Source: a virus (Duplodnaviria; Heunggongvirae; Uroviricota; Caudoviricetes). From it: a DNA stretch of 35,640 nucleotides. The notes under the pieces were generated by a model. That model saw only the letters and a program-made list of their open reading frames with translations, did not search any database and was not told the DNA's origin. Below are positions 1 to 31,115 of the stretch, one piece after another. Position numbers and translations under genes: made by a program. Position 1 is the first letter of the stretch; each line of letters starts with the position of its first letter. The stretch is taken from IMG/VR virus record IMGVR_UViG_2684623059_000001. One strand, given 5' to 3'.

Positions 1-1074
1 TCATTTGTTGATTTCAATTTTGTCCCATTCTCTCCCTCGGCTGTCCCTATACCGCGCCGCCATTGAATCTGATTTATGCCCGAGAAGACGTTGAGCAAAC
101 TTATCGCCAATCTGATTCCGGTATAGCCTCGCCGACAGGCTACGCAGTTCATGGAATGTTGGCGGGTCTCCATCAAATGAGAGTCCAGATGCATTTCTCG
201 CCTTTGTAAAATACTTAGATACTGTTTTCGGGGAAAGCGGTTCGTGATGCGTTGATGCAATTATTGTTTCACTGCCGCTGGCCTCCCTGCATTTCTGTAG
301 TGTATCAGCCAATGAAATATTGAGCGCGTCAATCGTTAGCGTCAGCGGAATGGCGAGCTTAGCCCCTGTTTTACCCTGTTCAATGTGAAGATGGTTGTCG
401 TTTATGTCTGACCATTTCATTTTGCACAAATCGCCGACTCTCTGACCTGTAACGACGGCCAAATCCATCGCAAGCCTCAGCCAGATTGGGAGAGGTTCGG
501 CTGCATGGTGAATTGCGACATACTCATTAGCTGTCAGCCTTGAGCGCCTTACTTCTGACTTTGCTGTGCGGGTTGCTGTTACCGGATTCGTAGCCACATG
601 CCCCTCGGCTATTGCCTCACGAAAAACGTCAACAAGGGTTGACCTGATTAATTTTGCGGAAGCCGCTTTACCTTCTGCTACGTAGGTGTTTAGCATTGCT
701 GCCACCTCTTTCGTTGATATGTCTGCGAGCGGTTTGTCCGGCAATTTTCTTCGGATTGCCCTGATTTTGCTGGCGTAGTCGAGTAGAGTTTTCGGCCTGA
801 TACCCCTCTCGCTGAGGATTGTTTCATATCGGTCAAGCCACGCATGAAGAGTGATTGCGTCAGCGCCTTTAATTCTGTCTATCAGTGACTCACGCCTGTT
901 CCCGGATAGCAACTCAATATTGGCCTGTATAGCTTCAGTGATTGCTATACGTCTGTCTCGGCCTAATCCGAACTCTTTACCCGTCCTTGGGTCCCTGTAG
1001 CAGTAATATCCATTGTTTCTTATATAAAGATTAGGGGGTAAATCCCGGCGCTCATGACTTCGCCTTCTTCCCAT
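1..1074 (-). CDS. int: Phage integrase, tyrosine recombinase, lambda Int type
   Basis: 357-aa translation starts MGRRRSHERRDLPPNLYIRNNGYYCYRDPRTGKEFGLGRDRR and ends ...RGREWDKIEINK, collinear with lambda Int as I remember it; overlaps xis as in lambda. Confidence 0.95.
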   Translation of the reverse strand: MGRRRSHERRDLPPNLYIRNNGYYCYRDPRTGKEFGLGRDRRIAITEAIQANIELLSGNRRESLIDRIKGADAITLHAWLDRYETILSERGIRPKTLLDYASKIRAIRRKLPDKPLADISTKEVAAMLNTYVAEGKAASAKLIRSTLVDVFREAIAEGHVATNPVTATRTAKSEVRRSRLTANEYVAIHHAAEPLPIWLRLAMDLAVVTGQRVGDLCKMKWSDINDNHLHIEQGKTGAKLAIPLTLTIDALNISLADTLQKCREASGSETIIASTHHEPLSPKTVSKYFTKARNASGLSFDGDPPTFHELRSLSARLYRNQIGDKFAQRLLGHKSDSMAARYRDSRGREWDKIEINK

Positions 1075-1270
1075 TTCTGATCCTCTTCAAAAGGCTACCT
1101 GTTACTGGTCGATTTAAGTCAACCTTTACCGCTGATTCGTGGAACAGATACTCTCTTCCATCCTTAACCGGAGGAGGGAATATCCTGCACTCGCGTACCC
1201 ATCGACGAACTGTTTCAAGGCTTCTTGGGCGTCGCTGGCGTGCGTTCCACTCCTGAAGTGTCAAGTACAT
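1052..1270 (-). CDS. xis: Excisionase
   Basis: 72-aa translation MYLTLQEWNARQRRPRSLETVRRWVRECRIFPPPVKDGREYLFHES... matches lambda Xis almost residue for residue (from memory); 3' end overlaps int start. Confidence 0.93.
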   Translation of the reverse strand: MYLTLQEWNARQRRPRSLETVRRWVRECRIFPPPVKDGREYLFHESAVKVDLNRPVTGSLLKRIRNGKKAKS

Positions 1271-1375
1271 CGCAAAGTCTCCGCAATTACACGCAAGAAA
1301 AGCCGCATTGATGCGGCAATGGTAGGTCTGGATATCTTGAGAAATGAACAGGCCTCATCGAGTGTGAGGCTGTGG

Positions 1376-1720
1376 TTAGTCCTTGCGTAACTCACTAATT
1401 CTTCTGTAAGTCTCTGGTGCTTTGTTTCCGTGTATCTTCATTTCAGACTTCAACAGAGCAACGAGGGAATCCCATTCGTTGAGGATGCCTTTGAATGCCG
1501 GAACGCGCTTTGCAACCTTGTCGAATGAATCTCTGATTTCTGGAATCTGCTCAACAAGTGCAACGCATCGCCGGAAGTCTGCTGCGTCATGTGGAGCGCC
1601 GAAGTGATGACCATAGATATTCTTTTTCAGTCCACATGCGATTGAGGCAAGAGTTGCGCTACTAATGCCAACATCGCCAGTCGATTGCCATTTCAAAACC
1701 TTCATAGCCAAATCTGACAT
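1376..1720 (-). CDS. Hypothetical phage early-region protein (114 aa), function unknown
   Basis: Intact ORF co-oriented with xis and int immediately upstream of xis; I do not recognise a family. Confidence 0.55.
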   Translation of the reverse strand: MSDLAMKVLKWQSTGDVGISSATLASIACGLKKNIYGHHFGAPHDAADFRRCVALVEQIPEIRDSFDKVAKRVPAFKGILNEWDSLVALLKSEMKIHGNKAPETYRRISELRKD

Positions 1721-1820
1721 TTCTTGTCTCCATAAAACAAAACCCGCCGTAGCGAGTTCAGATAAAAGAAATCCCCGCGAGTGCGAGGATTGTTATTCAC
1801 CTTTAACGGCAAGTTGCAGG

Positions 1821-2057
1821 TTAGCCACGGTTTACCTCCTGCGGCGGTTCCGGTAGCGGCATCCAGTGAGTTGCTTGCTCAATACCATTACCCGGCTTAA
1901 TCGTTGCATCTCCGCGCCGAAAGGTGCTTCCGGTATAGCGTGCGGAGCATATTAGCGGTTCAACCAGAGAGCTATCGAAATTCACCGAAATAAGCACGTT
2001 CTGGCCCTTTTCAGGCATTCGCTCACTACAGCTTATCCAACCATCCGGAGTTACCGG
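1821..2057 (-). pseudogene. 3' fragment of an unidentified early-left-operon gene, truncated by the IS911 junction
   Basis: The minus-strand frame of ORF 1821..2018 stays open upstream (PVTPDGWISCSER before the listed Met) right up to the IS911 end at 2058, so the listed Met is probably internal. Confidence 0.45.
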
Positions 2058-2129
2058 TGAAGTGGCACACTGAATTTGGCCACCTGAACAGAGGTGATAT
2101 GCTCACCTCAGAACAACACAGGTGCTCCA

Positions 2130-3298
<1,169 letters not shown>

Positions 3299-3306
3299 CC
3301 ACTTCA

Positions 3307-3396
3307 ATGCTGGAAGTTCACGTGTGTGAGCACTGCTGCGCAGAGCTGATGAGCGATTCGAATAGCTCGATGCACGAGGAAGAAGATGATGGCTAA
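3307..3396 (+). pseudogene. ninF: ninF 3' remnant (last ~29 codons) abutting the IS911 right end
   Basis: Frame reads (M)[28 protein letters not shown] then stop, matching the lambda NinF C-terminus as I remember it; the NinF N-terminus is not present left of the IS. Confidence 0.7.
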
Positions 3397-4009
3397 ACCA
3401 GCGCGAAGACGATGTAAAAACGATGAATGTCGGGAATGGTTTCACCCTGCATTCGCTAATCAGTGGTGGTGCTCTCCAGAGTGTGGAACCAAGATAGCAC
3501 TCGAACGACGAAGCAAAGAACGCGAAAAAGCGGAAAAGGCAGAAAAGGCAGCAGAGAAGAAACGACGACGAGAGGAGCAGAAACAGAAAGATAAACTTAA
3601 GATTCAAAAACTCGCCTTAAAGCCCCGCAGTTACTGGATTAAACAAGCCCAACAAGCCGTAAACGCCTTCATCAGAGAAAGAGACCGCGACTTACCATGT
3701 ATCTCATGCGGAACGCTCACGTCTGCTCAGTGGGATGCCGGACATTACCGGACAACTGCTGCGGCACCTCAACTCCGATTTGATGAACGCAATATTCACA
3801 AGCAATGCGTGGTGTGCAACCAGCACAAAAGCGGAAATCTCGTTCCGTATCGAGTCGAACTGATTAACCGCATCGGGCAGGAAGCAGTAGACGAAATCGA
3901 ATCAAACCATAGCCGCCATCGCTGGACTGTCGAAGAGTGCAAGGCGATCAAGGCAGAGTACCAACAGAAACTCAAAGACCTGCGAAATAGCAGAAGTGAG
4001 GCCGCATGA
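3386..4009 (+). CDS. ninG: NinG (Rap) recombination-associated protein
   Basis: Translation [36 protein letters not shown]...CISCGT...[11 protein letters not shown] is lambda NinG-like; the start may be the second ATG at 3389. Confidence 0.9.
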
Positions 4010-4212
4010 CGTTCTCAGTAAAAACCATTCCAGACATGCTCGTTGAAGCATACGGAAACCAGACAGAAGTAGCACGCAGACTGAAATGTAGTCGCGGTAC
4101 GGTCAGAAAATACGTTGATGATAAAGACGGGAAAATGCACGCCATCGTCAACGACGTTCTCATGGTTCATCGCGGATGGAGTGAAAGAGATGTGCTATTA
4201 CGAAAGAATTGA
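4006..4212 (+). CDS. ninH: NinH
   Basis: 68-aa translation [58 protein letters not shown] matches lambda NinH from memory; start overlaps ninG stop. Confidence 0.85.
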
Positions 4213-4855
4213 TGGCAGCAAATACCGAAATATTTGGGTAGCTGGCGACCTGCACGGATGCTACACGAACCTGATGAACAAACTGGATACGATTGGATTC
4301 GATAACAAAAAAGACCTGCTTATCTCGGTGGGCGATTTGGTTGATCGCGGTACAGAGAACGTTGAATGTCTGGAATTAATCACATTCCCCTGGTTCAGAG
4401 TTGTACGTGGAAACCATGAGCAAATGATGATTGATGGCTTATCAGAGCGTGGAAACGTCAATCACTGGCTGCTTAATGGCGGTGGCTGGTTCTTTAATCT
4501 CGATTACGACAAAGAAATTCTGGCTAAAGCTCTTGCCCATAAAGCAGAAGAACTTCCGTTAATCATCGAACTGGTGAGCAAAGGTAAAAAATATGTCATC
4601 TGCCACGCCGATTATCCTTGTGACGAATACGAATTTGGAAAGCCAGTTGATCATCAGCAGGTAATCTGGAACCGCGAACGAATCAGCAACTCACAAGACG
4701 GGATCGTGAAAGAAATTAAAGGCGCGGACACGTTCATCTTTGGTCATACGCCAGCAGTGAAACCACTCAAGTTTGCCAACCAGATGTATATCGATACTGG
4801 CGCAGTGTTCTGCGGAAACCTCACATTGATTCAGGTACAGGGAGAAGGCGCATGA
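4190..4855 (+). CDS. ninI: Lambda-type serine/threonine protein phosphatase (NinI)
   Basis: Metallophosphatase motifs GDLHG, GDLVDRG and GNHE in the translation; ATG at 4190 gives the 221-aa lambda length, the listed ORF start at 4115 overlaps ninH. Confidence 0.88.
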
Positions 4856-5475
4856 GACTCGAAAGCGTAGCTAAATTTCATTCGCCAAAAAGCCCGATGA
4901 TGAGCGACTCACCACGGGCTACGGCTTCTGACTCTCTTTCCGGTACTGATGTGATGGCTGCTATGGGGATGGCGCAATCACAAGCCGGATTCGGAATGGC
5001 TGCATTCTGCGGTAAGCACGAACTCAGCCAGAAAGACAAACAAAAGGCCATCAACTATCTGATGCAATTTGCACACAAGGTATCGGGGAAATACCGTGGT
5101 GTGGCAAAGCTTGAAGGAAATACTAAGGCAAAGGTGCTGCAAGTGCTCGCAACATTCGCTTATGCGGATTATTGCCGTAGTGCCGCGACGCCGGGCGCAA
5201 GATGCAGAGATTGCCACGGTACAGGCCGTGCGGTTGATATAGCCAAAACAGAGCAGTGGGGGAGAGTTGTCGAGAAAGAGTGCGGAAGATGCAAAGGCAT
5301 CGGCTATTCAAGGATGCCAGCAAGCGCCGCATATCGCGCTGTGACGATGCTAATCCCAAACCTTACCCAACCCACCTGGTCACGCACTGTTAAGCCGCTG
5401 TATGACGCTCTGGTGGTGCAATGCCACAAGGAAGAGTCAATTGCAGACAACATTTTGAATACGGTCACACGTTAG
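4852..5475 (+). CDS. Q: Late-gene antiterminator Q (lambda type)
   Basis: 207-aa translation [33 protein letters not shown]...[12 protein letters not shown]...CGRCKGIGY matches lambda Q with its zinc-binding cysteines; start overlaps ninI stop. Confidence 0.93.
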
Positions 5476-5517
5476 CAGCATGATTGCCACGGATGGCAAC
5501 GTATTAATGGCATAATA

Positions 5518-5546
5518 TTGACTTTTTGAATAACTTTGGGTAAATT
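5518..5546 (+). promoter_or_regulatory. Late promoter pR' (with overlapping qut region) for Q-dependent transcription
   Basis: ttgact (5518..5523), 17-bp spacer, taaatt (5541..5546), in the string ttgactttttgaataactttgggtaaatttgac, which closely resembles the lambda pR' region as I recall it; lies directly after Q. Confidence 0.6.
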
Positions 5547-5754
5547 TGACGCCAACAATGGGTGTTTTTTGCCTGCCATTGATGAATCTCAATAACCTGC
5601 CACCGAGTAGTTTTTATGCCCTGAATTGTATTTGTGTAGTAAACATGCTGACTGCAATGTAATAGAGTTTTTTTAGCCTGTAACCTCTTGACGGCATTGA
5701 ATTGCTTTTGTTATGAGTTGTAAGCCAATGTTATCATCTTGTATTGGGGTGGTT

Positions 5755-6471
5755 ATGAAGGATGGTGCGCTGCTCAGGAGTTCTTCACTTTTTATTGCCT
5801 ATATGGGATGCCTTGGATGGGGGAGTGCTTATTTCTATGGATGGGGTACTTCTTTTTACTACGGCTTCCCATGGTGGATTGTAGGTGCAGGTGTTGATGA
5901 TGTTGCCAGAAGTTTATTTTTTGCAGTTATCGTCATTGCTATATTTCTTATCGGTTGGGGTATTGGTGTTGTATTCTTTTTCGCAGTGAAAAGAAAACAT
6001 TCTATGCAAGAGCTAAATGTATTTCGCCTTTATTTTGCTGTGGAATTATTGTTTGTGCCGGCAATTATTGAGTTTTCTATATTGAGACAGAAGATTCAGG
6101 TACCTCTTTTGCTACTGTCAGCAGCGATTGCGCTGGCGGTTACAATTTCGATAAGATCTTATGGGCGATTTTTATCGGTATCATGCTTCTATGATAAGCC
6201 ATTTATAAAAAAACATTTTTTTGAGATTGTGATGATTGCTTTTGTGGCATATTTCTGGCTTTTTTCATTTCTGACAGGATATTACAAACCACAGTTTAAG
6301 AAAGAATATGAAATGATTAATTATAATGATGGTTGGTATTATGTTCTTGCTCGTTATGATAATTGTCTGGTTTTGTCTACTTCTTTCAATGCAGGTAGTA
6401 AAAGGTTTGTCATTTATCAATCAGCACAAGATAAGAATCTTCAGGTTGATATTGTAAGGACCAGAATTTAA
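5755..6471 (+). CDS. Hypothetical polytopic inner-membrane protein (about 238 aa), AT-rich insert downstream of Q
   Basis: Long open frame in visibly AT-rich DNA; about five hydrophobic segments (for example FFAVIVIAIFLIGWGIGVVFFFAV) then a ~60-aa hydrophilic C-terminal domain. ATG at 5755 is preceded by ggggtgg; an alternative ATG at 5713 is listed. Confidence 0.6.
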   Translation: MKDGALLRSSSLFIAYMGCLGWGSAYFYGWGTSFYYGFPWWIVGAGVDDVARSLFFAVIVIAIFLIGWGIGVVFFFAVKRKHSMQELNVFRLYFAVELLFVPAIIEFSILRQKIQVPLLLLSAAIALAVTISIRSYGRFLSVSCFYDKPFIKKHFFEIVMIAFVAYFWLFSFLTGYYKPQFKKEYEMINYNDGWYYVLARYDNCLVLSTSFNAGSKRFVIYQSAQDKNLQVDIVRTRI

Positions 6472-6930
6472 TTGGCTGCATAAATAATATTTTAAGTTGC
6501 AAGTTGGCTATTCGTAGGAATAGAACCTTAGACATGCAGAATGCGTTTTCTGAACATTGTTTTGTAAACCGTGTCTGCTTGCTGTTGTGATCCTGCTTTT
6601 AGTGATGGTGATAATGGATTTCACCAGCAGAATTATGTCGGTGCTGGCGGATGGCGTTCTGGTCTGCAGCATTATGGTATTGCTGTGGCCTATGATGAAA
6701 AAATAGACTGAATAATGCTTGATTTTTTTGTTTGCTGTTTATTAAAAACATTTCTGCATGGTGAATTCCCCTGTATGGGGGGGCGACTGGTGAATGTCGA
6801 ATACTTCGATTAATTGTCGATTGGCGGCTGACGCGGGTTCGGTTGCACCAGGCTGAACTCACCGGGAAGCTCCCGGTACCATGCGTATATCACAATTGTT
6901 ATTCCAGTTATCATTTTCCTTGTGAGTTTT

Positions 6931-6957
6931 GGCTGCGCATGGCGCGGCCTTTTTTTA
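6931..6957 (+). terminator. Candidate rho-independent terminator upstream of nanS-p
   Basis: ggctgcgc / atgg / gcgcggcc stem-loop (one G-U pair) followed by ttttttt. Confidence 0.4.
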
Positions 6958-7049
6958 CGGCCTGCTATTGGCAGATGTTCATCCTGTGATTTTCTTCTGT
7001 TCCTGCTCCGGCCTTTCCCTACTTTATTCCTGTGCATGAGAGAAATTTG

Positions 7050-8903
7050 ATGTCGATTAAACGTTATGATTTGGTCAGGGCTGCCTCGCCGTCAGATCTG
7101 GCGGAAAAACTGACACAAAAGCTGAAAGAGGGCTGGCAGCCATACGGCGGACCGGTTGCCATTACGCCGTACACACTGATGCAGGCGGTGGCTATTGAAG
7201 GAGATCCACAGGTCGGCCCTTCATCTGAGCCGGACTGGTTCTACGTGGTTGTGCTTGCCGGACAGTCCAACGGCATGGCCTACGGTGAAGGGCTTCCGTT
7301 GCCGGATTCTTACGATGCTCCGGATCCGCGCATTAAACAGCTGGCGCGCCGCAGCACGGTAACTCCGGGTGGAGAGAGTTGTACGTATAACGACATCATC
7401 CCGGCTGACCACTGTCTGCATGATGTGCAGGATATGAGTACGCTGAATCATCCGAGGGCTGACCTAAGCAAAGGTCAGTATGGCTGTGTGGGGCAGGGAC
7501 TTCATATTGCCAAAAAACTGCTCCCGTATATCCCGAATAATGCGGGGATCCTGCTGGTACCATGCTGTCGTGGTGGTTCGGCATTTACCCTGGGCGCGGA
7601 GGGGACATTCAGTGCGGACACGGGGGCCAGCCAGGATTCGGCGCGCTGGGGTGTGGGTAAACCGTTATATCAGGACCTGATTGTGCGCACCAAAGCTGCA
7701 TTACAGAAGAACCAGAAAAATGTGTTGCTGGCGGTGTGCTGGATGCAGGGAGAGTTTGACATGAGCGCCGCCACCTACGCACAGCAACCTGCGCTGTTTA
7801 CAGCCATGCTGAAGCAGTTTCGTGCTGACCTCACTGTGTTTAACGCGCAGTGTCATGGTGGCAGTGCTGTAAATGTGCCGTGGATTTGTGGTGACACGAC
7901 GTATTACTGGAAAAACACCTACGGCACGCAGTACAACACCATTTACGGGGCGTACAAAAACAGGGAGAGTGAGGGCGTTTATTTTGTGCCGTTCATGACA
8001 GACGGTAACGGCGTCAATACCGCCACTAATGCGCCGGCAGAAGATCCAGATATTCCGGCATCAGGATATTACGGTGCGGCATCGAGAACGAATGGAAACC
8101 AGGTATCATCAAACCGCCCGACACATTTTAGTTCATGGGCGCGCAGGAGCATTATTTCGGATCGCCTGGCAACCGCTATTCTGAACGCAGCCGGGCGCAC
8201 CTCAGCCTTCATCAGTGGTAAGGCACCGGAAATCAACCCCTCGCCCGGCGGCGATACGCCATCGGGGCCGTCTGATAGCGAAACATCCGTCCGCACAGTC
8301 TCCCTGCTGCCGGCAGACGGAGAGGCTGCTACGCAGGGCTGGACTATTAAAGATGGCGGAATTCAGCTGGCAGATGGTGTATTTAAGATCACCAAGCAGA
8401 GCAATAAAACCTGGTCCCTGGCGCATCCGGTGGATGACGCAATTACCCTGCTGACACAGGGCGGCAGGCTGACTTGTAAGTTCCGCCTGTCTGGAGCTCT
8501 GACTAATAATCAGTTCGGGCTGGGGATTTATCTGTATACGGACGCTCCCGTTCCTGATGGTGTGGCGATGACGGGTACCGGTAATCCGTTCCTGATGTCG
8601 TACTTCACTCAGACCACTGACGGTAGACTGAATCTGATGCATCACAGGAAAGCAGGAAACACGAAGCTGGGGGAATTTGGGGGCTACAGTAACGACTGGC
8701 AGACGCTGGAGCTGGTGTTCACCGCCGGCAGTGCCACGGTTACTCCGAAACTGAATGGAGTGGCTGGCCCGGCATTCCAGGTTATAAAAGACAGTCTGAC
8801 TCTGGGACTGAATGCGCTGACGCTGACGGATGTTACAAAAAATGCAGCGTATGGCGTTGAGATAGAAAGTCTGATGCTGGAGATAAATGCACCGGCATCA
8901 TAA
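7050..8903 (+). CDS. nanS-p: Prophage sialate O-acetylesterase (NanS-p type, N-terminal DUF1737 plus SGNH/SASA esterase domain)
   Basis: N-terminus MSIKRYDLVRA... and a GQSN motif near the start of the esterase domain; position after Q and before the lysis genes matches 933W-type phages. ATG at 7050 preferred over the GTG at 7032. Confidence 0.78.
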   Translation: MSIKRYDLVRAASPSDLAEKLTQKLKEGWQPYGGPVAITPYTLMQAVAIEGDPQVGPSSEPDWFYVVVLAGQSNGMAYGEGLPLPDSYDAPDPRIKQLARRSTVTPGGESCTYNDIIPADHCLHDVQDMSTLNHPRADLSKGQYGCVGQGLHIAKKLLPYIPNNAGILLVPCCRGGSAFTLGAEGTFSADTGASQDSARWGVGKPLYQDLIVRTKAALQKNQKNVLLAVCWMQGEFDMSAATYAQQPALFTAMLKQFRADLTVFNAQCHGGSAVNVPWICGDTTYYWKNTYGTQYNTIYGAYKNRESEGVYFVPFMTDGNGVNTATNAPAEDPDIPASGYYGAASRTNGNQVSSNRPTHFSSWARRSIISDRLATAILNAAGRTSAFISGKAPEINPSPGGDTPSGPSDSETSVRTVSLLPADGEAATQGWTIKDGGIQLADGVFKITKQSNKTWSLAHPVDDAITLLTQGGRLTCKFRLSGALTNNQFGLGIYLYTDAPVPDGVAMTGTGNPFLMSYFTQTTDGRLNLMHHRKAGNTKLGEFGGYSNDWQTLELVFTAGSATVTPKLNGVAGPAFQVIKDSLTLGLNALTLTDVTKNAAYGVEIESLMLEINAPAS

Positions 8904-9060
8904 TAAAAAAACGCCAGCGTAGTAGAAGAGAAGATTACGCTGGCGTAGGGATATACCCCGTGGAGAAATGATATGTAACACATATCGGGGATATTTCTAT
9001 ATAAACATTATAATTATTGTCAATCATAATGGTCAGGTATTATGACGTTTATGCATCAGA

Positions 9061-9089
9061 GCCATCAGTAATTAACTGGTGGCTTTTTT
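9061..9089 (+). terminator. Candidate rho-independent terminator between nanS-p and the holin gene
   Basis: gccatcag / taattaa / ctggtggc hairpin (one G-U pair) followed by tttttt. Confidence 0.4.
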
Positions 9090-9124
9090 ATTGTTGTCAG
9101 CTTCCGGATAACGGGAGACGGGGT

Positions 9125-9340
9125 ATGTACCAGATGGAAAAAATCACAACAGGTGTGTCATACACCACGTCAGCGGTGGGGACGGGATACTGGTTACTGC
9201 AGCTGCTGGACAAAGTCTCTCCATCCCAGTGGGTGGCGATAGGTGTGCTAGGGAGCTTGGTTTTTGGCCTGCTGACGTACCTGACAAACCTTTATTTCAA
9301 GATAAAAGAAGACAAGCGTAAGGCTGCGAGAGGTGAATAA
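9125..9340 (+). CDS. S: Holin, phage 21 S-type pinholin with dual-start motif
   Basis: 71-aa translation [45 protein letters not shown]...KRKAARGE resembles the S21 pinholin; two Met codons three residues apart suggest holin/antiholin starts. The listed ORF start at 9017 is an extension. Confidence 0.9.
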
Positions 9341-9837
9341 TGCCTCCATCATTACGAAAAGCTGTTGCAGCTGCTATTGGTGGCGGGGCTATTGCTATAG
9401 CATCTGTGTTAATTACTGGCCCAAGTGGTAACGATGGTCTGGAAGGTGTCAGCTACATACCATACAAAGATATTGTTGGTGTATGGACTGTATGTCACGG
9501 ACACACCGGAAAAGACATCATACTAGGTAAAACGTATACCGAAGTAGAATGCAAAGCCCTCCTGAATAAAGACCTTGCCACGGTCGCCAGACAAATTAAC
9601 CCGTACATCGAAGTCGATATACCGGAAACAACGCGCGGCGCTCTTTATTCGTTCGTTTACAACGTGGGCGCAGGCAATTTCAGAACATCGACTTTTCTTC
9701 GCAAAATAAACCAGGGTGATATCAAAGGCGCATGTGATCAGCTACGGCGTTGGACATACGCTGGCGGTAAGCAATGGAAAGGGCTGATGACTCGCCGCGA
9801 GATTGAGCGTGAAGTCTGTTTGTGGGGACAACAATGA
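9340..9837 (+). CDS. R: SAR endolysin (signal-anchor-release lysozyme, phage 21 R type)
   Basis: N-terminal hydrophobic Gly/Ala-rich SAR segment [20 protein letters not shown] followed by a T4-lysozyme-like domain; start overlaps the holin stop. Confidence 0.9.
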
Positions 9838-10298
9838 GCAGGGTAACCGCGATTATCTCCGCTCTGGTTATCTGCATCATCGTCTGCCTGTCATGGGCGG
9901 TTAACCATTACCGTGATAACGCCATGACCTACAAAGCCCAGCGCGACAAAAATGCCAGAGAACTGAAGCTGGCGAACGCGGCAATTACTGACATGCAGAT
10001 GCGTCAGCGTGATGTTGCTGCGCTCGATGCAAAATACACGAAGGAGTTAGCTGATGCGAAAGCTGAAAATGATGTTCTGCGTAATGATGTTGCCGTTGGT
10101 CGTCGTCGGTTGCACATCAAAGCAGTCTGTCAGTCAGTGCGTGAAGCCACCACCGCCTCCGGCGTGGATAATGCAGCCTCCCCCCGACTGGCAGACACCG
10201 CTGAACGGGATTATTTCATCCTCAGAGAACGGCTGATGACAATGCAGAAGCAACTGGAAGGAGCACAGGAATATATCCGTACCCAGTGTATACCGTGA
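9834..10298 (+). CDS. Rz: Inner-membrane spanin Rz
   Basis: Translation from [29 protein letters not shown]... is lambda Rz-like; listed ORF start at 9822. Confidence 0.9.
10054..10236 (+). CDS. Rz1: Outer-membrane lipoprotein spanin Rz1, embedded in the +1 frame of Rz
   Basis: 60 aa with lipobox LVVVGC and proline-rich tract [16 protein letters not shown]; located entirely inside Rz. Confidence 0.85.
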
Positions 10299-10761
10299 TG
10301 TTTTGTTATGAAGGTGTTACTGGTAACGTTAAGGTAATTTAACAAAAAGTCAGTTCCGGACTTTATAGTGTGCTCAGATCATGGCCAAAAACGATTTCTG
10401 TGATAAATATTTTGAATATTATTTACAGATAAATGAAGTGGGCGCATGGATGGAAATTTACAATAGAGTATGAAGTATATGTCCGTATTGTATGGGCAGA
10501 GAAGGCAAAAACACGGTAATTCCTTGTGTTGCCATGATACCTGATTGGCAGAATAGTTGTTTGGTTTTGAGTATATAGTCAGCGTTTTTTGTTCAGTAAT
10601 AGCTCTCTCAAAAAATAATAAAATAAGGTGATTATTTGGGTTTATTATTTAGTTTTTTTTGTGTGTTGCTTTGTTGTTTCTCTGTGATTTATTTTTTATT
10701 GTTATTTCATTAAAGGAAGGTAAATTCAGGATAGCAGTCTGTAGATAATCGGAGGTCACTT

Positions 10762-11076
10762 ATGCTACATGATCACCTGGCAGAATGTCTGGAGAAAAAA
10801 GGACTGTACCGGAGAGCAGCTGAACGATGGGCAAAAGTGATGGTACAGCTAAGTGATGACCAGAAAAGAAAAGTGGCGGCACAGAAACGAGCAGAGTGTT
10901 TGCGTAAGGCGCGCCGGACTCCGGTTTCACCGGTGAACCTGACAGAAATAAAACAAGCGGTCAACAGACTACATTCTGAGTTGGGAATGGGATTTGAAGA
11001 GCGGCGGGTATTCCGACGATATAAAGGGACAGGAGAACAGAATACGTCCGGAAACGCGCGGTCAAAAAAATGCTAA
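10762..11076 (+). CDS. Putative PerC-family (Pch-like) transcriptional regulator
   Basis: 104-aa basic protein MLHDHLAECLEKKGLYRRAAERWAKVMVQ...; the LE-KGL-RRAA-RW motif is what I recall for PerC/Pch regulators of the LEE. ggagg ribosome-binding site 8 nt upstream; preceded by ~460 bp of AT-rich non-coding DNA. Confidence 0.5.
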   Translation: MLHDHLAECLEKKGLYRRAAERWAKVMVQLSDDQKRKVAAQKRAECLRKARRTPVSPVNLTEIKQAVNRLHSELGMGFEERRVFRRYKGTGEQNTSGNARSKKC

Positions 11077-11112
11077 AAAATATCTGAGAGAGTTATTGCC
11101 TGTTACCATAAT

Positions 11113-11139
11113 AAAAAGCGACTTTAGTGGTCGCTTTTG
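11113..11139. terminator. Bidirectional rho-independent terminator between the convergent PerC-like and ylcI-like genes
   Basis: aaaaagcgac / tttagtg / gtcgcttttg: 6-bp stem flanked by an A-run on one side and a T-run on the other. Confidence 0.45.
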
Positions 11140-11156
11140 TGTCATATATAAGTCGT

Positions 11157-11381
11157 TTAAGTAAACCTGTCTGAACAGGTGCTCTGGTCGTGTTTGTCTT
11201 TGTTGGGTAAAAATTGAGAATATTTTTCATTAATTAATCTTCTTCTGCAGGCTTCAATAACCCACGCTGAAAAATTTTCTGAACCTTTCAGATCAAGAGC
11301 GATGTTAATTTGTTCAATCATCTGGTTTGGAAATCGGATGTTGCGGGTTGTTGTTCTGCGGGTTCTGTTCTTTGATGACAT
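11157..11381 (-). CDS. ylcI: YlcI-like small protein (DUF3950 family)
   Basis: 74-aa translation MSSKNRTRRTTTRNIRFPNQMIEQINIALDLKGSENFSAWVIEACRRRL... matches my memory of DLP12 YlcI, which likewise sits just upstream of the terminase small subunit gene. Confidence 0.6.
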   Translation of the reverse strand: MSSKNRTRRTTTRNIRFPNQMIEQINIALDLKGSENFSAWVIEACRRRLINEKYSQFLPNKDKHDQSTCSDRFT

Positions 11382-11578
11382 AATGTTGCCCCCATATTCA
11401 GTGTTGCTGATTTGTATTATCTGAAGTTGCTTTTACGTTAATTTGATGCAGATCAATTAATACGATACCTGCGTCATAATTGATTATTTGACGTGGTTTG
11501 ATGGCGTACACGCACGTTGTGACATGTAGATGATAATTATTATTTTGTGGGTCCTTTCCGGCGATCCGACAGGTTACG

Positions 11579-11590
11579 GGGCGGCGACCT
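11579..11590 (+). other. cosN cohesive-end site, lambda type
   Basis: gcgatccgacaggttacg followed by gggcggcgacct cgcgggttttcg reproduces the lambda right-end/left-end junction and the 12-nt cohesive end; the predicted Nu1 start lies about 190 bp downstream as in lambda. Confidence 0.8.
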
Positions 11591-12267
11591 CGCGGGTTTT
11601 CGTTATTTATGAGTTTTTTTGAGGTGGTGGTTGTTGTTTTATCGTTTGATATATCTACTTGATAAGTAATAAGAAAGAAAAACAAACACAACAACCTGAT
11701 GAGCTTTCTTATACGAAAAAGCATGTAAAATCAGAGGGTTTTACAAAAAGCGGGGTTGTTGTATTGCTTTTTTGCCGGTGGTTTATGGAGGAGCTGTGGC
11801 CTTTTTATTGAATAAAAGCGACATGGCCTCCTCCATCGGTATCTCAGTACAGGCATTTGATAAATGGGGTGTCCCTCCTGTTGAGCGCCGGGGGAGAGAG
11901 GTTTTCTATGACGTTAAAACTGTACTGGAGATAGATCGCGAGCGACGTCAGCAAAACCAGAAATCTTCAGATGGTGAAAATAACCTTGAGGAAAGGCTAC
12001 TTCAGGCCAGGGTTAATCTGACGGAAGAACAGGCTATTGCTCAGCGGTTAAAAAACCAGGTTGCAGAGCATAAAGTGATTGATACCGCTTTCTCTGTTTT
12101 TGCACTGTCCCGGTTATCCGGAGAACTGGCATCTGTTCTGGACAGTATTCCGCTTTCGATGCAAAGAAAATTCCCTGAGTTGACAGGCAGACAATTGGCT
12201 TATCTGAAAGAGCTTGTTGCGAAGGGAGCTAATAAATGCGTTGAATCTGCTGAAAAAATGAAGGAAT

Positions 12268-15980
<3,713 letters not shown>

Positions 15981-16000
<20 letters not shown>

Positions 16001-17300
16001 TCTCCCGCATATTGCCAGCATGGCCTTTAATGAGCCGCTGATGCTTGAACCCGCATATGCGCGGGTTTTCTTTTGTGCGCTTGCCGGCCAGCTTGGGATC
16101 AGCCGCCTGACGGATGCGGTGTCCGGCGACAGCCTGACTGCCGGAGAGGCACCTGCGACACTGGCGTTATCCGTTGATGATGACGGACCACGACAGGCCC
16201 GCAGTTATCAGGTCATGAACGGCATCGCCGTGCTGCCGGTGTCCGGCACGCTGGTCAGCCGGACGCGGGCGCTGCAGCCGTATTCGGGGATGACCGGTTA
16301 CAACGGCATTATCGCCCGTCTGCAACAGGCTGCCAGCGATCCGATGGTGGACGGCATTCTGCTGGATATGGACACGCCAGGCGGAATGGTGGCGGGGGCA
16401 TTTGACTGCGCTGACATCATCGCCCGTGTGCGTGACATAAAACCGGTATGGGCGCTGGCCAACGACATGAACTGCAGTGCAGGTCAGCTGCTTGCCAGTG
16501 CCGCCTCCCGGCGTCTGGTCACGCAGACCGCCCGGGCAGGCTCCATCGGCGTCATGATGGCTCACAGTAATTACGGTGCTGCGCTGGAGAAACAGGGCGT
16601 GGAAATCACTCTGATTTACAGCGGCAGCCATAAGGTGGATGGCAACCCCTACAGCCATCTTCCGGATGACGTCCGGGAAACACTGCAGTCCCGGATGGAT
16701 GCAACCCGCCGGATGTTTGCACAGAAGGTGTCGGCATATACCGGCCTGTCCGTGCAGGCCGTGCTGGATACCGAGGCTGCGGTGTACAGCGGTCATGAGG
16801 CCATTGATGCCGGACTGGCTGATGAACTTGTTAACAGCACCGATGCGATCACCGTCATGCGTGATGCACTGGATGCACGTAAATCCCGTCTCTCAGGAGG
16901 GCGAATGACCAAAGAGACTCAATCAACAACTGTTTCAGCCACTGCTTCGCAGGCTGACGTTACTGGCGTGGTGACAGCGACGGAGGGCGAAAACGCCAGC
17001 GCGGCGCAGCCGGACGTGAACGCGCAGATCACCGCAGCGGTTGCGGCAGAAAACAGTCGCATTATGGGGATCCTCAATTGTGAAGAGGCCCACGGACGTG
17101 AAGAACAGGCACGTGTGCTGGCCGAAACCCCCGGTATGACCGTGGAAACGGCCCGCCGCATTCTGGCCGCAGCACCACAGAGTGCACAGGCGCGCAGTGA
17201 CACTGCGCTGGATCGTCTGATGCAGGGTGCACCGGCACCGCTGGCTGCAGGTAACCCGGCACCTGATGCCGTTAACGATTTGCTGAACACACCAGTGTAA
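15981..17300 (+). CDS. C: Head maturation protease C
   Basis: GTG start at 15981 gives VTAELRNLPHIASMAFNEPLMLEPAYARVFFCALAGQ..., lambda gpC-like; 1320 bp as in lambda. Confidence 0.9.
16695..17300 (+). CDS. Nu3: Scaffolding protein Nu3, nested in-frame in the 3' part of C
   Basis: Internal in-frame ATG at 16695 (MDATRRMFAQKVS...) gives a 606-bp nested gene, the same length as lambda Nu3. Confidence 0.7.
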   Translation: MDATRRMFAQKVSAYTGLSVQAVLDTEAAVYSGHEAIDAGLADELVNSTDAITVMRDALDARKSRLSGGRMTKETQSTTVSATASQADVTGVVTATEGENASAAQPDVNAQITAAVAAENSRIMGILNCEEAHGREEQARVLAETPGMTVETARRILAAAPQSAQARSDTALDRLMQGAPAPLAAGNPAPDAVNDLLNTPV

Positions 17301-17309
17301 GGGATGTTT

Positions 17310-17642
17310 ATGACGAGCAAAGAAACCTTTACCCATTATCAGCCGCTGGGCAACAGTGACCCGGCTCATACCGCAACCGCGCCAGGCGGATTGAGTGCGA
17401 AAGCGCCTGCAATGACCCCGCTGATGCTGGACACCTCCACCCGTAAGCTGGTTGCGTGGGATGGCACCACCGACGGCGCTGCCGTTGGCATTCTGGCAGT
17501 TGCTGCTGACCAGACCAGCACCACGCTGACGTTCTACAAGTCCGGCACGTTCCGTTATGAGGATGTGCTCTGGCCGGATGCTGCCAGCGACGAGACGAAA
17601 AAACGGACCGCGTTTGCCGGAACGGCAATCAGCATCGTTTAA
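17310..17642 (+). CDS. D: Head decoration protein D
   Basis: [37 protein letters not shown]... matches lambda gpD; 333 bp. Confidence 0.93.
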
Positions 17643-17697
17643 CCTTACCCTTCATCACTAAAGGCCGCCTGAGCTGCTTTTTTTACGGGATTTTTTT

Positions 17698-18723
17698 ATG
17701 TCGATGTACACAACCGCCCAGCTGCTGGCGGCAAATGAGCAGAAATTTAAGTTTGATCCGCTGTTTCTGCGTCTCTTTTTCCGTGAGAGCTATCCCTTCA
17801 CCACGGAGAAAGTCTATCTCTCACAAATTCCGGGGCTGGTAAACATGGCGCTGTACGTTTCGCCGATTGTTTCCGGTGAAGTTATCCGCTCCCGTGGCGG
17901 CTCCACTTCTGAATTTACGCCGGGATATGTCAAGCCGAAGCATGAGGTGAATCCGCAGATGACCCTGCGTCGCCTGCCGGATGAAGATCCACAGAATCTG
18001 GCAGACCCGGCTTACCGCCGCCGTCGCATCATCATGCAGAACATGCGTGACGAAGAGCTGGCCATTGCTCAGGTCGAAGAGATGCAGGCCGTTTCTGCCG
18101 TGCTTAAGGGCAAATACACCATGACCGGTGAAGCCTTCGATCCGGTTGAGGTGGATATGGGCCGCAGTGCGGCGAACAACATCACGCAGTCCGGCGGCAC
18201 GGAGTGGAGCAAGCGTGACAAGTCCACGTATGACCCGACCGACGATATCGAAGCCTACGCGCTGAACGCCAGCGGTGTGGTGAATATCATCGTGTTCGAT
18301 CCGAAAGGCTGGGCGCTGTTCCGTTCCTTCAAAGCTGTCAGGGAGAAGCTGGATACCCGTCGTGGCTCTAATTCCGAGCTGGAGACAGCGGTGAAAGACC
18401 TGGGCAAAGCGGTGTCCTATAAGGGGATGTATGGCGATGTGGCCATCGTCGTGTATTCCGGACAGTACGTGGAAAACGGCGTCAAAAAGAACTTCCTGCC
18501 GGACAACACGATGGTGCTGGGGAACACTCAGGCACGCGGTCTGCGCACCTATGGCTGTATTCAGGATGCGGATGCATTGAGTGAGGGTATTAATGCGTCT
18601 CCCCGTTACCCGAAAAACTGGGTGACCACCGGCGATCCGGCGCGTGAGTTCACCATGATTCAGTCAGCACCGCTGATGCTGCTGGCTGACCCTGATGAGT
18701 TCGTGTCCGTACAACTGGCGTAA
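17698..18723 (+). CDS. E: Major capsid protein E
   Basis: 341-aa translation MSMYTTAQLLAANEQKFKFDPLFLRLFFRESYPFTTEKVYLSQIPG... matches lambda gpE. Confidence 0.95.
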   Translation: MSMYTTAQLLAANEQKFKFDPLFLRLFFRESYPFTTEKVYLSQIPGLVNMALYVSPIVSGEVIRSRGGSTSEFTPGYVKPKHEVNPQMTLRRLPDEDPQNLADPAYRRRRIIMQNMRDEELAIAQVEEMQAVSAVLKGKYTMTGEAFDPVEVDMGRSAANNITQSGGTEWSKRDKSTYDPTDDIEAYALNASGVVNIIVFDPKGWALFRSFKAVREKLDTRRGSNSELETAVKDLGKAVSYKGMYGDVAIVVYSGQYVENGVKKNFLPDNTMVLGNTQARGLRTYGCIQDADALSEGINASPRYPKNWVTTGDPAREFTMIQSAPLMLLADPDEFVSVQLA

Positions 18724-18764
18724 TCATGGCCCTTCGGGGCCATTGTTTCTCTGTGGAGGAGTCC

Positions 18765-19163
18765 ATGACGAAAGATGAACTGATTGCCCGTCTCCGCTCG
18801 CTGGGTGAACAACTGAACCGTGATGTCAGCCTGACGGGGACGAAAGAAGAACTGGCGCTCCGTGTGGCAGAGCTGGAAGAGGAGCTTGATGACACGGATG
18901 AAACTGCCGGTCAGGACACCCCTCTCAGCCGGGAAAATGTGCTGACCGGACATGAAAATGAGGTGGGATCAGCGCAGCCGGATACCGTGATTCTGGATAC
19001 GTCTGAACTGGTCACGGTCGTGGCACTGGTGAAGCTGCATACTGATGCACTTCACGCCACGCGGGATGAACCTGTGGCATTTGTGCTGCCGGGAACGGCG
19101 TTTCGTGTCTCTGCCGGTGTGGCAGCCGAAATGACAGAGCGCGGCCTGGCCAGAATGCAATAA
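18765..19163 (+). CDS. FI: DNA packaging protein FI
   Basis: From ATG 18765: MTKDELIARLRSLGEQLNRDVSLTGTKEELALRVAELEEEL..., lambda FI-like; 399 bp. Confidence 0.9.
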   Translation: MTKDELIARLRSLGEQLNRDVSLTGTKEELALRVAELEEELDDTDETAGQDTPLSRENVLTGHENEVGSAQPDTVILDTSELVTVVALVKLHTDALHATRDEPVAFVLPGTAFRVSAGVAAEMTERGLARMQ

Positions 19164-30515: not shown

Positions 30516-31115
30516 ATGCGTAAATTATGTGCTGTTATTCTGTCCGCAGTAGTCTGGCTGGTTGCCGCTGGTACGCCAGCGAGCGCAGCAGAGCATCAGT
30601 CCACACTAAGCGCCGGGTATCTTCAGACCCATACTGATATGCCAGGCAGTGATGACCTGAAGGGCATTAACGTGAAATACCGTTATGAGTTTACGGACAC
30701 GCTGGGGCTGGTGACGTCATTCAGCTATGCAGGAGACAAGAATCGCCAGCTGACCCATTACAGCGATACCCGCTGGCACGAAGATTCCGTGCGTAACCGC
30801 TGGTTCAGCGTAATGGCGGGGCCATCTGTGCGCGTGAATGAATGGTTCAGCGCGTATGCGATGGCGGGTGTGGCTTACAGCCGTGTGTCGGCTTTTTCCG
30901 GGGATTATCTCCGCGTAACTGACAACAAGGGGAAAACGCACGACGTGCTGACCGGAAGTGATGACGCTCGCCACAGCAATACCTCTCTGGCGTGGGGAGC
31001 TGGCGTGCAGTTTAACCCGACCGAATCCGTGGCCGTTGATGTCGCTTATGAAGGCTCCGGCAGCGGTGACTGGCGTACCAACAGTTTCATCGTTGGTGTC
31101 GGTTATAAATTCTGA
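30516..31115 (+). CDS. lom: Lom outer-membrane protein (Ail/Lom/PagC family beta-barrel)
   Basis: Signal peptide MRKLCAVILSAVVWLVAAGTPASA, beta-barrel character and C-terminal ...GVGYKF; lambda Lom-like; own ribosome-binding site gagagg. Confidence 0.9.
   Translation: MRKLCAVILSAVVWLVAAGTPASAAEHQSTLSAGYLQTHTDMPGSDDLKGINVKYRYEFTDTLGLVTSFSYAGDKNRQLTHYSDTRWHEDSVRNRWFSVMAGPSVRVNEWFSAYAMAGVAYSRVSAFSGDYLRVTDNKGKTHDVLTGSDDARHSNTSLAWGAGVQFNPTESVAVDVAYEGSGSGDWRTNSFIVGVGYKF

Follow-up and report, generated by a model that had tools for sequence, protein, structure and literature searches.

Organization of the late-gene cassette

The stretch of DNA analysed here, referred to as the window (35,640 nucleotides), derives from Escherichia albertii EC06-170 and contains a lambda-like prophage that adjoins mdtA. 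The late-gene cassette of this prophage, of which all features are located on the plus strand, is organized in the order lambda-type Q, the late promoter pR', a membrane-protein gene, a gene for a DUF3927 protein, an STnc100 sRNA with its terminator, the esterase gene that is the subject of this study, a second terminator, and the lysis genes. The antiterminator gene Q (positions 4852-5475; PF03589) encodes a protein that shares 204 of its 207 residues (98%) with lambda Q. The late promoter pR' (5518-5546; TTGACT-17-TAAATT) was aligned to that of lambda and is directly followed by a lambda-like Q-binding and pause region, after which the homology with lambda stops at position 5563. No equivalent of the lambda terminator tR' was found between pR' and the membrane-protein gene, the hairpin at 5548-5566 being indistinguishable from shuffled sequence (z 0.06), and no significant structure was found in the 184-nt leader downstream of pR'.

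The region corresponding to the toxin slot of Stx phages (approximately 5564-6737 in the window) is occupied by a gene for a 247-aa membrane protein (5728-6471), as a sequence-only reading of this DNA had proposed, and no stx genes were found in the window. This protein is a homologue of the "putative membrane protein" CPT_434_68 of phage 434; it has a precomputed match to PF27470 and belongs to phrog_1521, and gave no match in the local Pfam, NCBIfam and PADLOC libraries. It is followed by a small membrane-protein ORF of the DUF3927 (TciB-like) type (6557-6706), which is 49 aa long instead of 52 aa as in close relatives, due to a T/C difference at position 6704; a literature search on TfpB, TciB and DUF3927 returned no relevant paper.

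Directly upstream of the esterase gene lies an STnc100-family sRNA element (6727-6960), which scores 95.8 bits with RF02076 (gathering score 47) and is conserved 5' of the esterase in phage 434, a Stx1a phage and 933W. The element ends in an intrinsic terminator, composed of an 8-bp GC-rich stem (6931-6949) and a run of seven T (-19 kcal/mol, z -3.15), located 93 nt 5' of the esterase ATG. A second intrinsic-terminator-like hairpin (9058-9092; 12-bp stem and T run, -17 kcal/mol, z -4.5) separates the esterase from the holin gene, and an analogous terminator is annotated in phage 434. The order esterase-PasA/C-holin and its linkage to STnc100 have been described in published sRNA work, and by analogy a PasA/PasC-type sRNA may end at the hairpin at 9058-9092. 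These two structures (6931-6957 and 9058-9092) are the only strong terminators from pR' to the lysis genes. The lysis cassette (9125-10298) is composed of a P21-type holin (9125-9340), a lysozyme (9340-9837) and an Rz spanin gene (9834-10298).

NanS-p genes typically lie in the late region of a lambdoid (pro)phage, after Q/pR' or stx and before the lysis genes. This position is found here, and the order is common to phage 434, the Stx1a phage and 933W. The proposal that the esterase occupies the same position as in Stx phages holds at the nucleotide level as well: homology with 933W and the Stx1a phage starts at approximately position 6738 of the window, which is right after their stxB, and continues into the esterase. 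A tRNA scan of the whole window gave no hit, so that ileZ, argN and argO, present in 933W, are lacking here.

The esterase gene and its product

The esterase ORF extends from 7032 to 8903 without internal stops. The ATG at position 7050 was chosen as start codon on the basis of homologue support, resulting in a gene (7050-8903) for a protein of 617 aa. The predicted product has the three-domain architecture of NanS-p (DUF1737, SASA and lectin-like C-terminal region), as identified with Pfam, PDB and PHROG: an N-terminal DUF1737 domain (7050-7214, aa 1-55; PF08410 at aa 4-49, E 5.7e-15), a SASA/SGNH catalytic domain (7227-8186, aa 60-379; PF03629, E 2.6e-11; PDB match 3PT5, E 2.9e-119), and a C-terminal lectin-like jelly-roll domain corresponding to DUF6645 and the NanS-p C-terminal region (8310-8891; PF20350 at aa 468-578, E 8.4e-19; NanS-p C-terminal domain 6YP6 at aa 421-614, E 1.8e-30). 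PHROG 143 is matched over the full length of the protein, and no match was obtained in the NCBIfam and PADLOC libraries. The N-terminus is hydrophilic and a signal peptide is absent. The G+C content of the gene is 54%, compared with 39-47% for the genes of the flanking slot and the lysis cassette. Across family comparisons the dN/dS ratio of the whole gene ranges from 0.14 to 0.19, which points to purifying selection at the level of the family; per domain, values of 0.09-0.19 (DUF1737), 0.10-0.14 (SASA) and 0.14-0.32 (C-terminal region) were obtained, with the DUF1737 domain at approximately 0.18-0.19 in most comparisons and at 0.09 versus 933W.

Four catalytic blocks were recognized in the esterase, GQSN (71-74), RGGSAF (174-179), MQGEFD (232-237) and R356-P-T-H359, which correspond to the block list given for 3PT5 (PMC10792757). 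In the multiple alignment of homologues Ser73 (codon 7266-7268), Gly175 and Gly176, Q233-G-E, Arg356 and His359 (codon 8124-8126) are invariant. On this basis Ser73 is the predicted nucleophile, the glycines of RGGSAF would form the oxyanion block, and His359 would act as the base, with Arg356 three residues upstream. The canonical SGNH block V, D-x-x-H with an Asp as catalytic acid, is not found: the esterase has R356-P-T-H359 and 3PT5 has R-x-S-H at this position. In the structure of NanS (3PT5) the catalytic His is contacted by a main-chain oxygen at the position of the catalytic acid, and not by an Asp side chain (PMC10792757). The NanS family therefore operates with a Ser-His pair, and the absent Asp is a trait of this family and no defect of this copy, which should not be scored as an inactivation. 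The test suggested in the sequence-only reading, presence of a Ser-Asp-His triad, was consequently mis-specified for this enzyme; its two other expectations, that the esterase is of the NanS-p type and that the gene is intact, were borne out by the domain matches and by the uninterrupted frame with conserved Ser73 and His359. The gene is thus predicted to encode an intact NanS-p-family sialate O-acetylesterase with all NanS active-site blocks.

Loss of the early region and retention of the esterase

The prophage was expected to lack an inducible early region, and this proved correct. From xis (1052-1270) to ninG (starting at 3386) the window contains only an ORF of 114 aa and an IS3-family element of 1250 bp (2058-3307, plus strand; transpos_IS3, E 4e-90), which replaces N, cI, cro, O, P and ninB-F. 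The boundaries of the element were set by its junctions versus related loci (L016, L001 and L003) and by reading of the sequence, its ends being read as TGAAGTGGCACAC... and ...GTTGACCACTTCA, while a search for inverted repeats at these ends gave none of at least 14 nt. By its ends the element resembles IS911. An outward hybrid promoter at its right end was considered and dropped, as the TTGACC in the terminal repeat is followed by no acceptable -10 box.

In such a defective prophage the esterase gene might be in decay and its product no longer active, the more so as the gene was lost by internal deletion in related cassettes, being cleanly removed from relatives that carry the same Q. We regard this as extremely improbable, given the full-length frame, the presence of all active-site blocks and the identity of the gene at the DNA level (100%) to that of an intact prophage (L003, CP117637.1), which possesses cI, cro, cII, O and P. 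Between the two prophages only five mismatches were counted over window positions 4000 (approximately) to 11467. The same identity bears on the idea that retention of the gene in a truncated prophage is a sign of selection, which is not supported: because a DNA-identical copy is present in a prophage with a full early region, intactness of the esterase reflects a recent truncation and not selection.

Expression of the esterase

A consensus scan of the region between the terminator and the ATG (6958-7049) revealed no promoter-like site, although a weak or non-sigma-70 promoter could escape detection by such a crude scan. With a strong terminator on each side and no promoter of its own, the gene is expected to depend on Q for late expression. 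The sequence-only reading had concluded that, without the early region, the gene has to be expressed independently of Q or through readthrough; this does not follow, considering the intact Q, the lambda-like pR' and the terminator at 93 nt upstream. The interpretation that we consider quite probable, judging from the gene order and regulatory sites, is that of a NanS-p-family esterase expressed as a Q-dependent late gene together with the lysis genes, and still intact because the truncation of the prophage is recent. RNA polymerase modified by Q at pR' would read through both terminators, and only then would the esterase be transcribed; as a cytoplasmic enzyme co-expressed with the lysis proteins it would be freed upon lysis of the producing cell, and would strip 7-, 8- and 9-O-acetyl groups from sialic acids, either free or mucin-bound. 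This would be of benefit to sibling lysogens and perhaps also to the phage set free. With pR, N and the repressor removed by the IS911-like element, Q and the esterase would be largely silent in this prophage, exceptions being weak readthrough from the IS element into Q, or a lambda-type Q provided in trans by a co-resident phage.

The esterase could alternatively function as a Q-independent moron, expressed in the uninduced prophage from its own promoter or by readthrough, and allow the host to feed on O-acetylated sialic acids. The lambda promoter pR' is constitutive, and in the absence of a tR' equivalent its transcripts would reach the STnc100 terminator, where a fraction may leak; since terminators are never 100% efficient, basal readthrough could result in a Q-independent, lysogen-level expression. 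The gene also stands out as a moron-like compositional island by its G+C content and has a terminator at its 3' side, and according to reviews lysogens of EDL933 and O104:H4 grow on Neu5,9Ac2 via NanS-p without deliberate induction. Against this stand the lack of a promoter-like site between terminator and ATG (by the crude consensus scan), the 8-bp GC stem with its seven T just upstream, and the published expression, which tracks prophage induction: reviews describe an increase in nanS-p transcription together with stx after induction by mitomycin C or norfloxacin, and the position of the gene as suggestive of Q control. Moreover, as the enzyme has no signal peptide, either lysis or cytoplasmic uptake of its substrate would be needed for its action, and its deletion from the cassettes with the same Q implies that it is not indispensable to hosts with degraded copies. 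We therefore consider the moron function unlikely, and expression of this terminator-insulated, sRNA-associated esterase should be treated as Q-dependent.

Substrate and possible association with the virion

One review considers it possible that the substrate is a polysaccharide of the bacterial surface, for instance an O-acetylated O-antigen or capsule. The enzyme would then assist the phage in adsorption or release, and not the host in its nutrition; the lectin-like C-terminal domain, suggestive of targeting to a polymeric glycan, is in line with this. The catalytic domain, however, shares 57% identity with NanS, for which esterase activity on Neu5,9Ac2 has been demonstrated, and according to a review both sialic acids and mucin glycans are de-O-acetylated by recombinant NanS-p, while an LPS substrate is without experimental support. 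A surface polysaccharide as the real substrate appears very unlikely.

The DUF1737 domain raises the question whether the esterase is a virion component. Cryo-EM and proteomics (preprint 10.64898/2026.04.10.717836) have placed the N-terminal domain of gp84 of phi24B as hexamers on the capsid hexons, where the protein occupies the flat hexons at the face centres of the T=9 shell and no others. By the same anchoring, particles of the present prophage would carry a mucin- or sialoglycan-modifying enzyme. The domain is present, with the dN/dS values given above, Tyr41 is kept in the anchor loop, where gp84 has a Tyr "tooth", and as a late gene the esterase would be timed with the capsid proteins. 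The capsid itself argues otherwise: its major protein shows 98.2% identity with lambda gpE. Capsids of lambda gpE are T=7 shells, which lack the face-centre hexon to which gp84 binds. In addition, lambda, with a near-identical gpE and Q, has no esterase gene and is fully viable; the anchor loop is three residues shorter than that of 933W and phi24B; the SSP motifs proposed for processing are not retained; and the prophage is unable to replicate or to be induced by itself. Decoration of the capsid in the manner of gp84 is therefore unlikely.

A variant of this idea starts from the pairing of a short-loop DUF1737 with gpE, which among the matches listed was established in phage 434, 2B8 and this prophage. 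The short-loop domain might dock the esterase onto the T=7 hexons of gpE in phage 434 and in the intact relatives of this prophage, and the defective prophage, with a lambda-type Q supplied in trans by a co-resident phage, might donate esterase that decorates, or is released with, the particles of that phage. On the available comparisons this is a speculative scenario to which we attach little probability; if true, NanS-p proteins would be virion-borne mucus-targeting factors across capsid types, and not host metabolic morons.

Comparison with known NanS-p systems

Retention of a nanS-p gene without stx, to which the sequence-only reading drew attention, turned out to be common. The gene was counted in 1471 of 5426 complete E. 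coli genomes, and a single genome may hold as many as 11 copies. The same cassette context occurs in phage 434 and in numerous prophages of both E. albertii and E. coli; our own exact-peptide-word scan of genome contigs yielded seven loci and is too narrow to show the distribution over species. Published data indicate that the NanS-p enzymes of non-Stx prophages are active, and that less than 3% of the chromosomal PasA sRNA genes, which flank the NanS-p esterase, adjoin stx. The presence of NanS-p in non-Stx lambdoid prophages is thus both common and already published, to which the present copy adds an E. albertii example only. Its main value is a correct annotation, the occurrence of an intact copy in an IS-truncated prophage being no evidence of selection.

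The chromosomal NanS (YjhS, 3PT5) shares with the catalytic domain of the phage esterase the Ser and His residues and the oxyanion blocks, and likewise has no catalytic Asp. Unlike the phage enzyme, NanS consists of a single domain, belongs to the nan regulon, and has neither DUF1737 nor lectin-like domain nor phage late-gene control. Among the phage enzymes, the best characterised is L0105/Z1466 of 933W, which is 56% identical to the esterase described here. L0105 and vb_24B_21 (gp84) of phi24B have the same architecture, are located downstream of an STnc100-like element and conserve the catalytic blocks, as is the case here, whereas the anchor loop of DUF1737 and the linkers of this Stx2a-type protein are longer. 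Both 933W and phi24B are podoviruses with T=9 capsids decorated by gp84, in contrast to the lambda-type capsid of the present prophage.

Closer homology was found with the NanS-p copies of Stx1 phages (including Stx1a) and of EDL933 (90-92% identity, with approximately 92% for the Stx1a-phage copies). The NanS-p proteins of EDL933 (O157:H7) and O104:H4, which belong to the same three-domain family and occupy the same late-operon position, were compared via reviews of the work of Saile et al. 2016, 2018 and Feuerbaum et al. 2018, as were the EDL933-type alleles of approximately 90% identity. According to these reviews the EDL933 and O104:H4 enzymes are active esterases on Neu5,9Ac2 and mucin that confer growth on Neu5,9Ac2, and every allele tested from these strains was active, including those of non-Stx prophages.

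The esterase CPT_434_71 of phage 434 (OL657226.1), a SASA-family carbohydrate esterase, shares 94% identity with the present enzyme across the entire protein. Phage 434 and the present prophage share the succession of membrane protein, DUF3927/TciB protein, upstream terminator and esterase, followed by pinholin, SAR endolysin and spanins, and both combine a lambda gpE capsid with the absence of stx. They differ in that phage 434 is viable, has a Q82-type antiterminator and infects E. coli, while the E. albertii prophage has a lambda-type Q and an IS element in place of its early region.

Prophage organization and gene content

Window positions 1-18903, the stretch compared, are 100% identical to the chromosome of Escherichia albertii EC06-170 (AP014857.1; strain name as given in PMC7550682). 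The lambda-like prophage in the window adjoins mdtA/mdtB and comprises, on the minus strand, int (1-1074), xis (1052-1270) and a 114-aa ORF (1376-1720), followed on the plus strand by an insertion sequence, a block of ninG, ninH and a Ser/Thr phosphatase gene (3386-4855), Q (4852-5475), the esterase gene, the holin, lysozyme and Rz genes (9125-10298), and a complete set of lambda-type head and tail genes (11772 to approximately 32500), each ORF of which has a length typical for lambda. Neither stx nor, by tRNA scan, any tRNA gene was found in the window. The defective prophage also carries genes for a PerC-family regulator (10762-11076, +), Lom (30516-31115, +) and an NleG-family type III effector (32974-33621, +), which are more plausible grounds than the esterase for its upkeep in eae-positive E. 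albertii.

An intact NanS-p-type esterase

The gene at 7050-8903 (+), which the sequence-only reading assigned to a NanS-p-type sialate O-acetylesterase, has an unbroken reading frame of 617 aa. It contains the Pfam domains DUF1737 (aa 4-49), the catalytic domain SASA and the lectin-like DUF6645 (aa 468-578), and a PHROG 143 match spans its whole length. In a PDB search, residues 60-379 matched NanS/YjhS (3PT5, E 2.9e-119) and residues 421-614 the NanS-p C-terminal lectin-like domain (6YP6, E 1.8e-30). In a protein alignment, identity to the window protein was 94% for the phage 434 esterase, 92% for an Stx1a-phage copy, 56% for 933W L0105/Z1466 and 57% for the NanS catalytic domain; an EDL933 (ATCC 43895) esterase fragment shared 91%. 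The N-terminus (MSIKRYDLVRAASPSDLAEKL...) is hydrophilic and thus has no signal peptide.

The active-site blocks described for 3PT5 in a structural survey (GQSNA, RGGSAF, MQGEFD and R-x-S-H-F-S; PMC10792757) correspond here to GQSNG (Ser73), RGGSAF (174-179), MQGEFD (232-237) and R356-P-T-H359-F-S, and all their columns are invariant in the alignment, from which the catalytic machinery is predicted to be intact. Neither the loss of catalytic residues nor the broken frame that would have spoken against an active enzyme was found. The Ser-Asp-His triad proposed earlier as a check was mis-specified and would wrongly flag a missing Asp, since the catalytic His of 3PT5 is contacted by a main-chain oxygen and not by an Asp side chain (PMC10792757). 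At codon 351 (8101-8103), eight positions before the catalytic His, the window, the CP117637.1 prophage, 434 and the Stx1a-phage copy encode Gln; 933W, NanS and four otherwise identical E. albertii copies have Trp, a change requiring two nucleotide substitutions.

The DUF1737 domain raises the alternative that the protein decorates the capsid, as the DUF1737 of phi24B gp84 forms hexamers on capsid hexons, but gp84 is restricted to the flat face-centre hexons of a T=9 shell (cryo-EM preprint 10.64898/2026.04.10.717836). The anchor-loop Tyr is kept in the window domain, but the loop is three residues shorter. The window major capsid protein shares 98.2% identity with lambda gpE, and lambda shells are T=7 without a face-centre hexon, a geometry that the lambda-type shell encoded here would share. 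Decoration, though possible, is unsupported here and we consider it improbable.

The toxin slot and late transcription

Q differs from lambda Q at three of 207 residues (204 identical), and a promoter-like site at 5518-5546 (TTGACT-17-TAAATT), together with the next approximately 20 nt, aligns to lambda pR' and its Q-loading/pause region. Lambda homology ends at 5563 and Stx-phage homology starts at approximately 6738, directly after stxB in 933W and the Stx1a phage, which delimits an exchangeable slot (approximately 5564-6737). As in phage 434, the slot holds a membrane-protein gene (5728-6471, +) and a DUF3927 (TciB) gene (6557-6706, +; 49 aa); the esterase indeed lies after the toxin slot and before the lysis genes. 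The 247-aa, multi-pass membrane protein is encoded by an AT-rich gene (39% GC) and belongs to phrog_1521 (precomputed Pfam PF27470 'TfpB'); local Pfam, NCBIfam and PADLOC searches gave no match. No equivalent of lambda tR' was found between pR' and the membrane-protein gene, so lysogens may produce both slot proteins constitutively.

The esterase gene is immediately preceded by a full-length STnc100 sRNA (6727-6960, +; Rfam RF02076, 95.8 bits, gathering score 47) that finishes in a strong intrinsic terminator (8-bp GC stem 6931-6949, then T7; -19 kcal/mol, z -3.15). The element is kept upstream of the esterase in phage 434 and also in 933W and the Stx1a phage, where it follows stxB. As no tR' intervenes, the sRNA could be made as the 3' end of a constitutive pR' transcript. 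A second strong terminator-like hairpin occupies the esterase-holin gap (9058-9092; -17 kcal/mol, z -4.5), preceded by promoter-like hexamers (TAAACA-17-CATAAT, 9002-9030) with a predicted RNA of approximately 55-60 nt. This candidate RNA (8990-9092, +) may be a prophage sRNA of the PasA/PasC type, for which no Rfam model exists; a common prophage order is STnc100/PasD, sialic-acid esterase, PasA/PasC, holin, lysozyme (10.64898/2026.05.13.724894). Directly past the esterase stop codon, an 11-bp perfect hairpin (ACGCCAGCGTA...TACGCTGGCGT; 8905-8950) preceded by A7 reads as a minus-strand intrinsic terminator, and the corresponding 434 site is so annotated.

Given the lambda-like Q and pR', the earlier conclusion that the gene can be expressed only without Q or by readthrough is not warranted. 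Because terminators flank the esterase, no tR' equivalent exists and no promoter-like site was found in the 93 nt between the STnc100 terminator and the ATG, we infer that expression is Q-dependent: the esterase, like the lysis genes, would be transcribed by Q-modified polymerase only. Published nanS-p induction data, as reviewed, fit Q-dependent transcription. With pR and N replaced by the IS, Q could be supplied by weak readthrough of the transposase transcript or in trans. No convincing outward hybrid promoter was found at the IS end.

Early-region loss and selection on the esterase

The missing inducible early region, already recognized in the sequence-only reading, is replaced by a 1250-bp IS3-family element (2058-3307, +), which we take to be IS911-like from its ends. 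The same or a related IS occurs at the same mdtA-adjoining prophage in E. albertii CP099877.1 (locus L016, 3037-4287) and in an E. coli strain (locus L001, 1800-3045); since the adjacent deletion end-points differ among the three, their sequences suggest repeated IS-adjacent deletions.

The esterase DNA is 100% identical to the copy in the CP117637.1 prophage, which retains cI, cro, cII, O and P and shows only five mismatches over window positions 4000-11467 (approximately). Together with the lambda-typical head and tail ORF lengths, this indicates a recent truncation, leaving too little time for decay. Across the esterase family, dN/dS is 0.14-0.19 for the whole gene (DUF1737 0.09-0.19, SASA 0.10-0.14, C-terminal domain 0.14-0.32), values that point to purifying selection.

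Five E. coli-type prophages with an identical Q protein (L017, L018, L020, L021 and L022) have a clean internal deletion of window positions 7076-8831, recurrent in several genomes, that leaves the first 26 nt and last approximately 72 nt of the gene, and lambda, near-identical in Q and gpE, has no esterase gene. Both argue that the esterase is an accessory, dispensable component of the cassette.

Comparison with known NanS-p loci

The earlier observations stand, but their interpretation is supported only in part, and retention without stx is not unusual. Reviews and a 2023 study place NanS-p genes in non-Stx prophages and describe the EDL933 and O104:H4 alleles as active esterases that enable growth on Neu5,9Ac2. 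The gene occurs in 1471 of 5426 complete E. coli genomes (median 2, up to 11 places per genome), the non-Stx phage 434 has the same module, and fewer than 3% of chromosomal genes for PasA, an esterase-flanking sRNA, adjoin stx (10.64898/2026.05.13.724894). NanS-p genes are thus as a rule found without stx, and this was known before. Judged by its sequence, the window esterase is intact and belongs to an established enzyme family; the late-gene cassette that carries it, in a recently IS-truncated E. albertii prophage, is likewise known and conserved.
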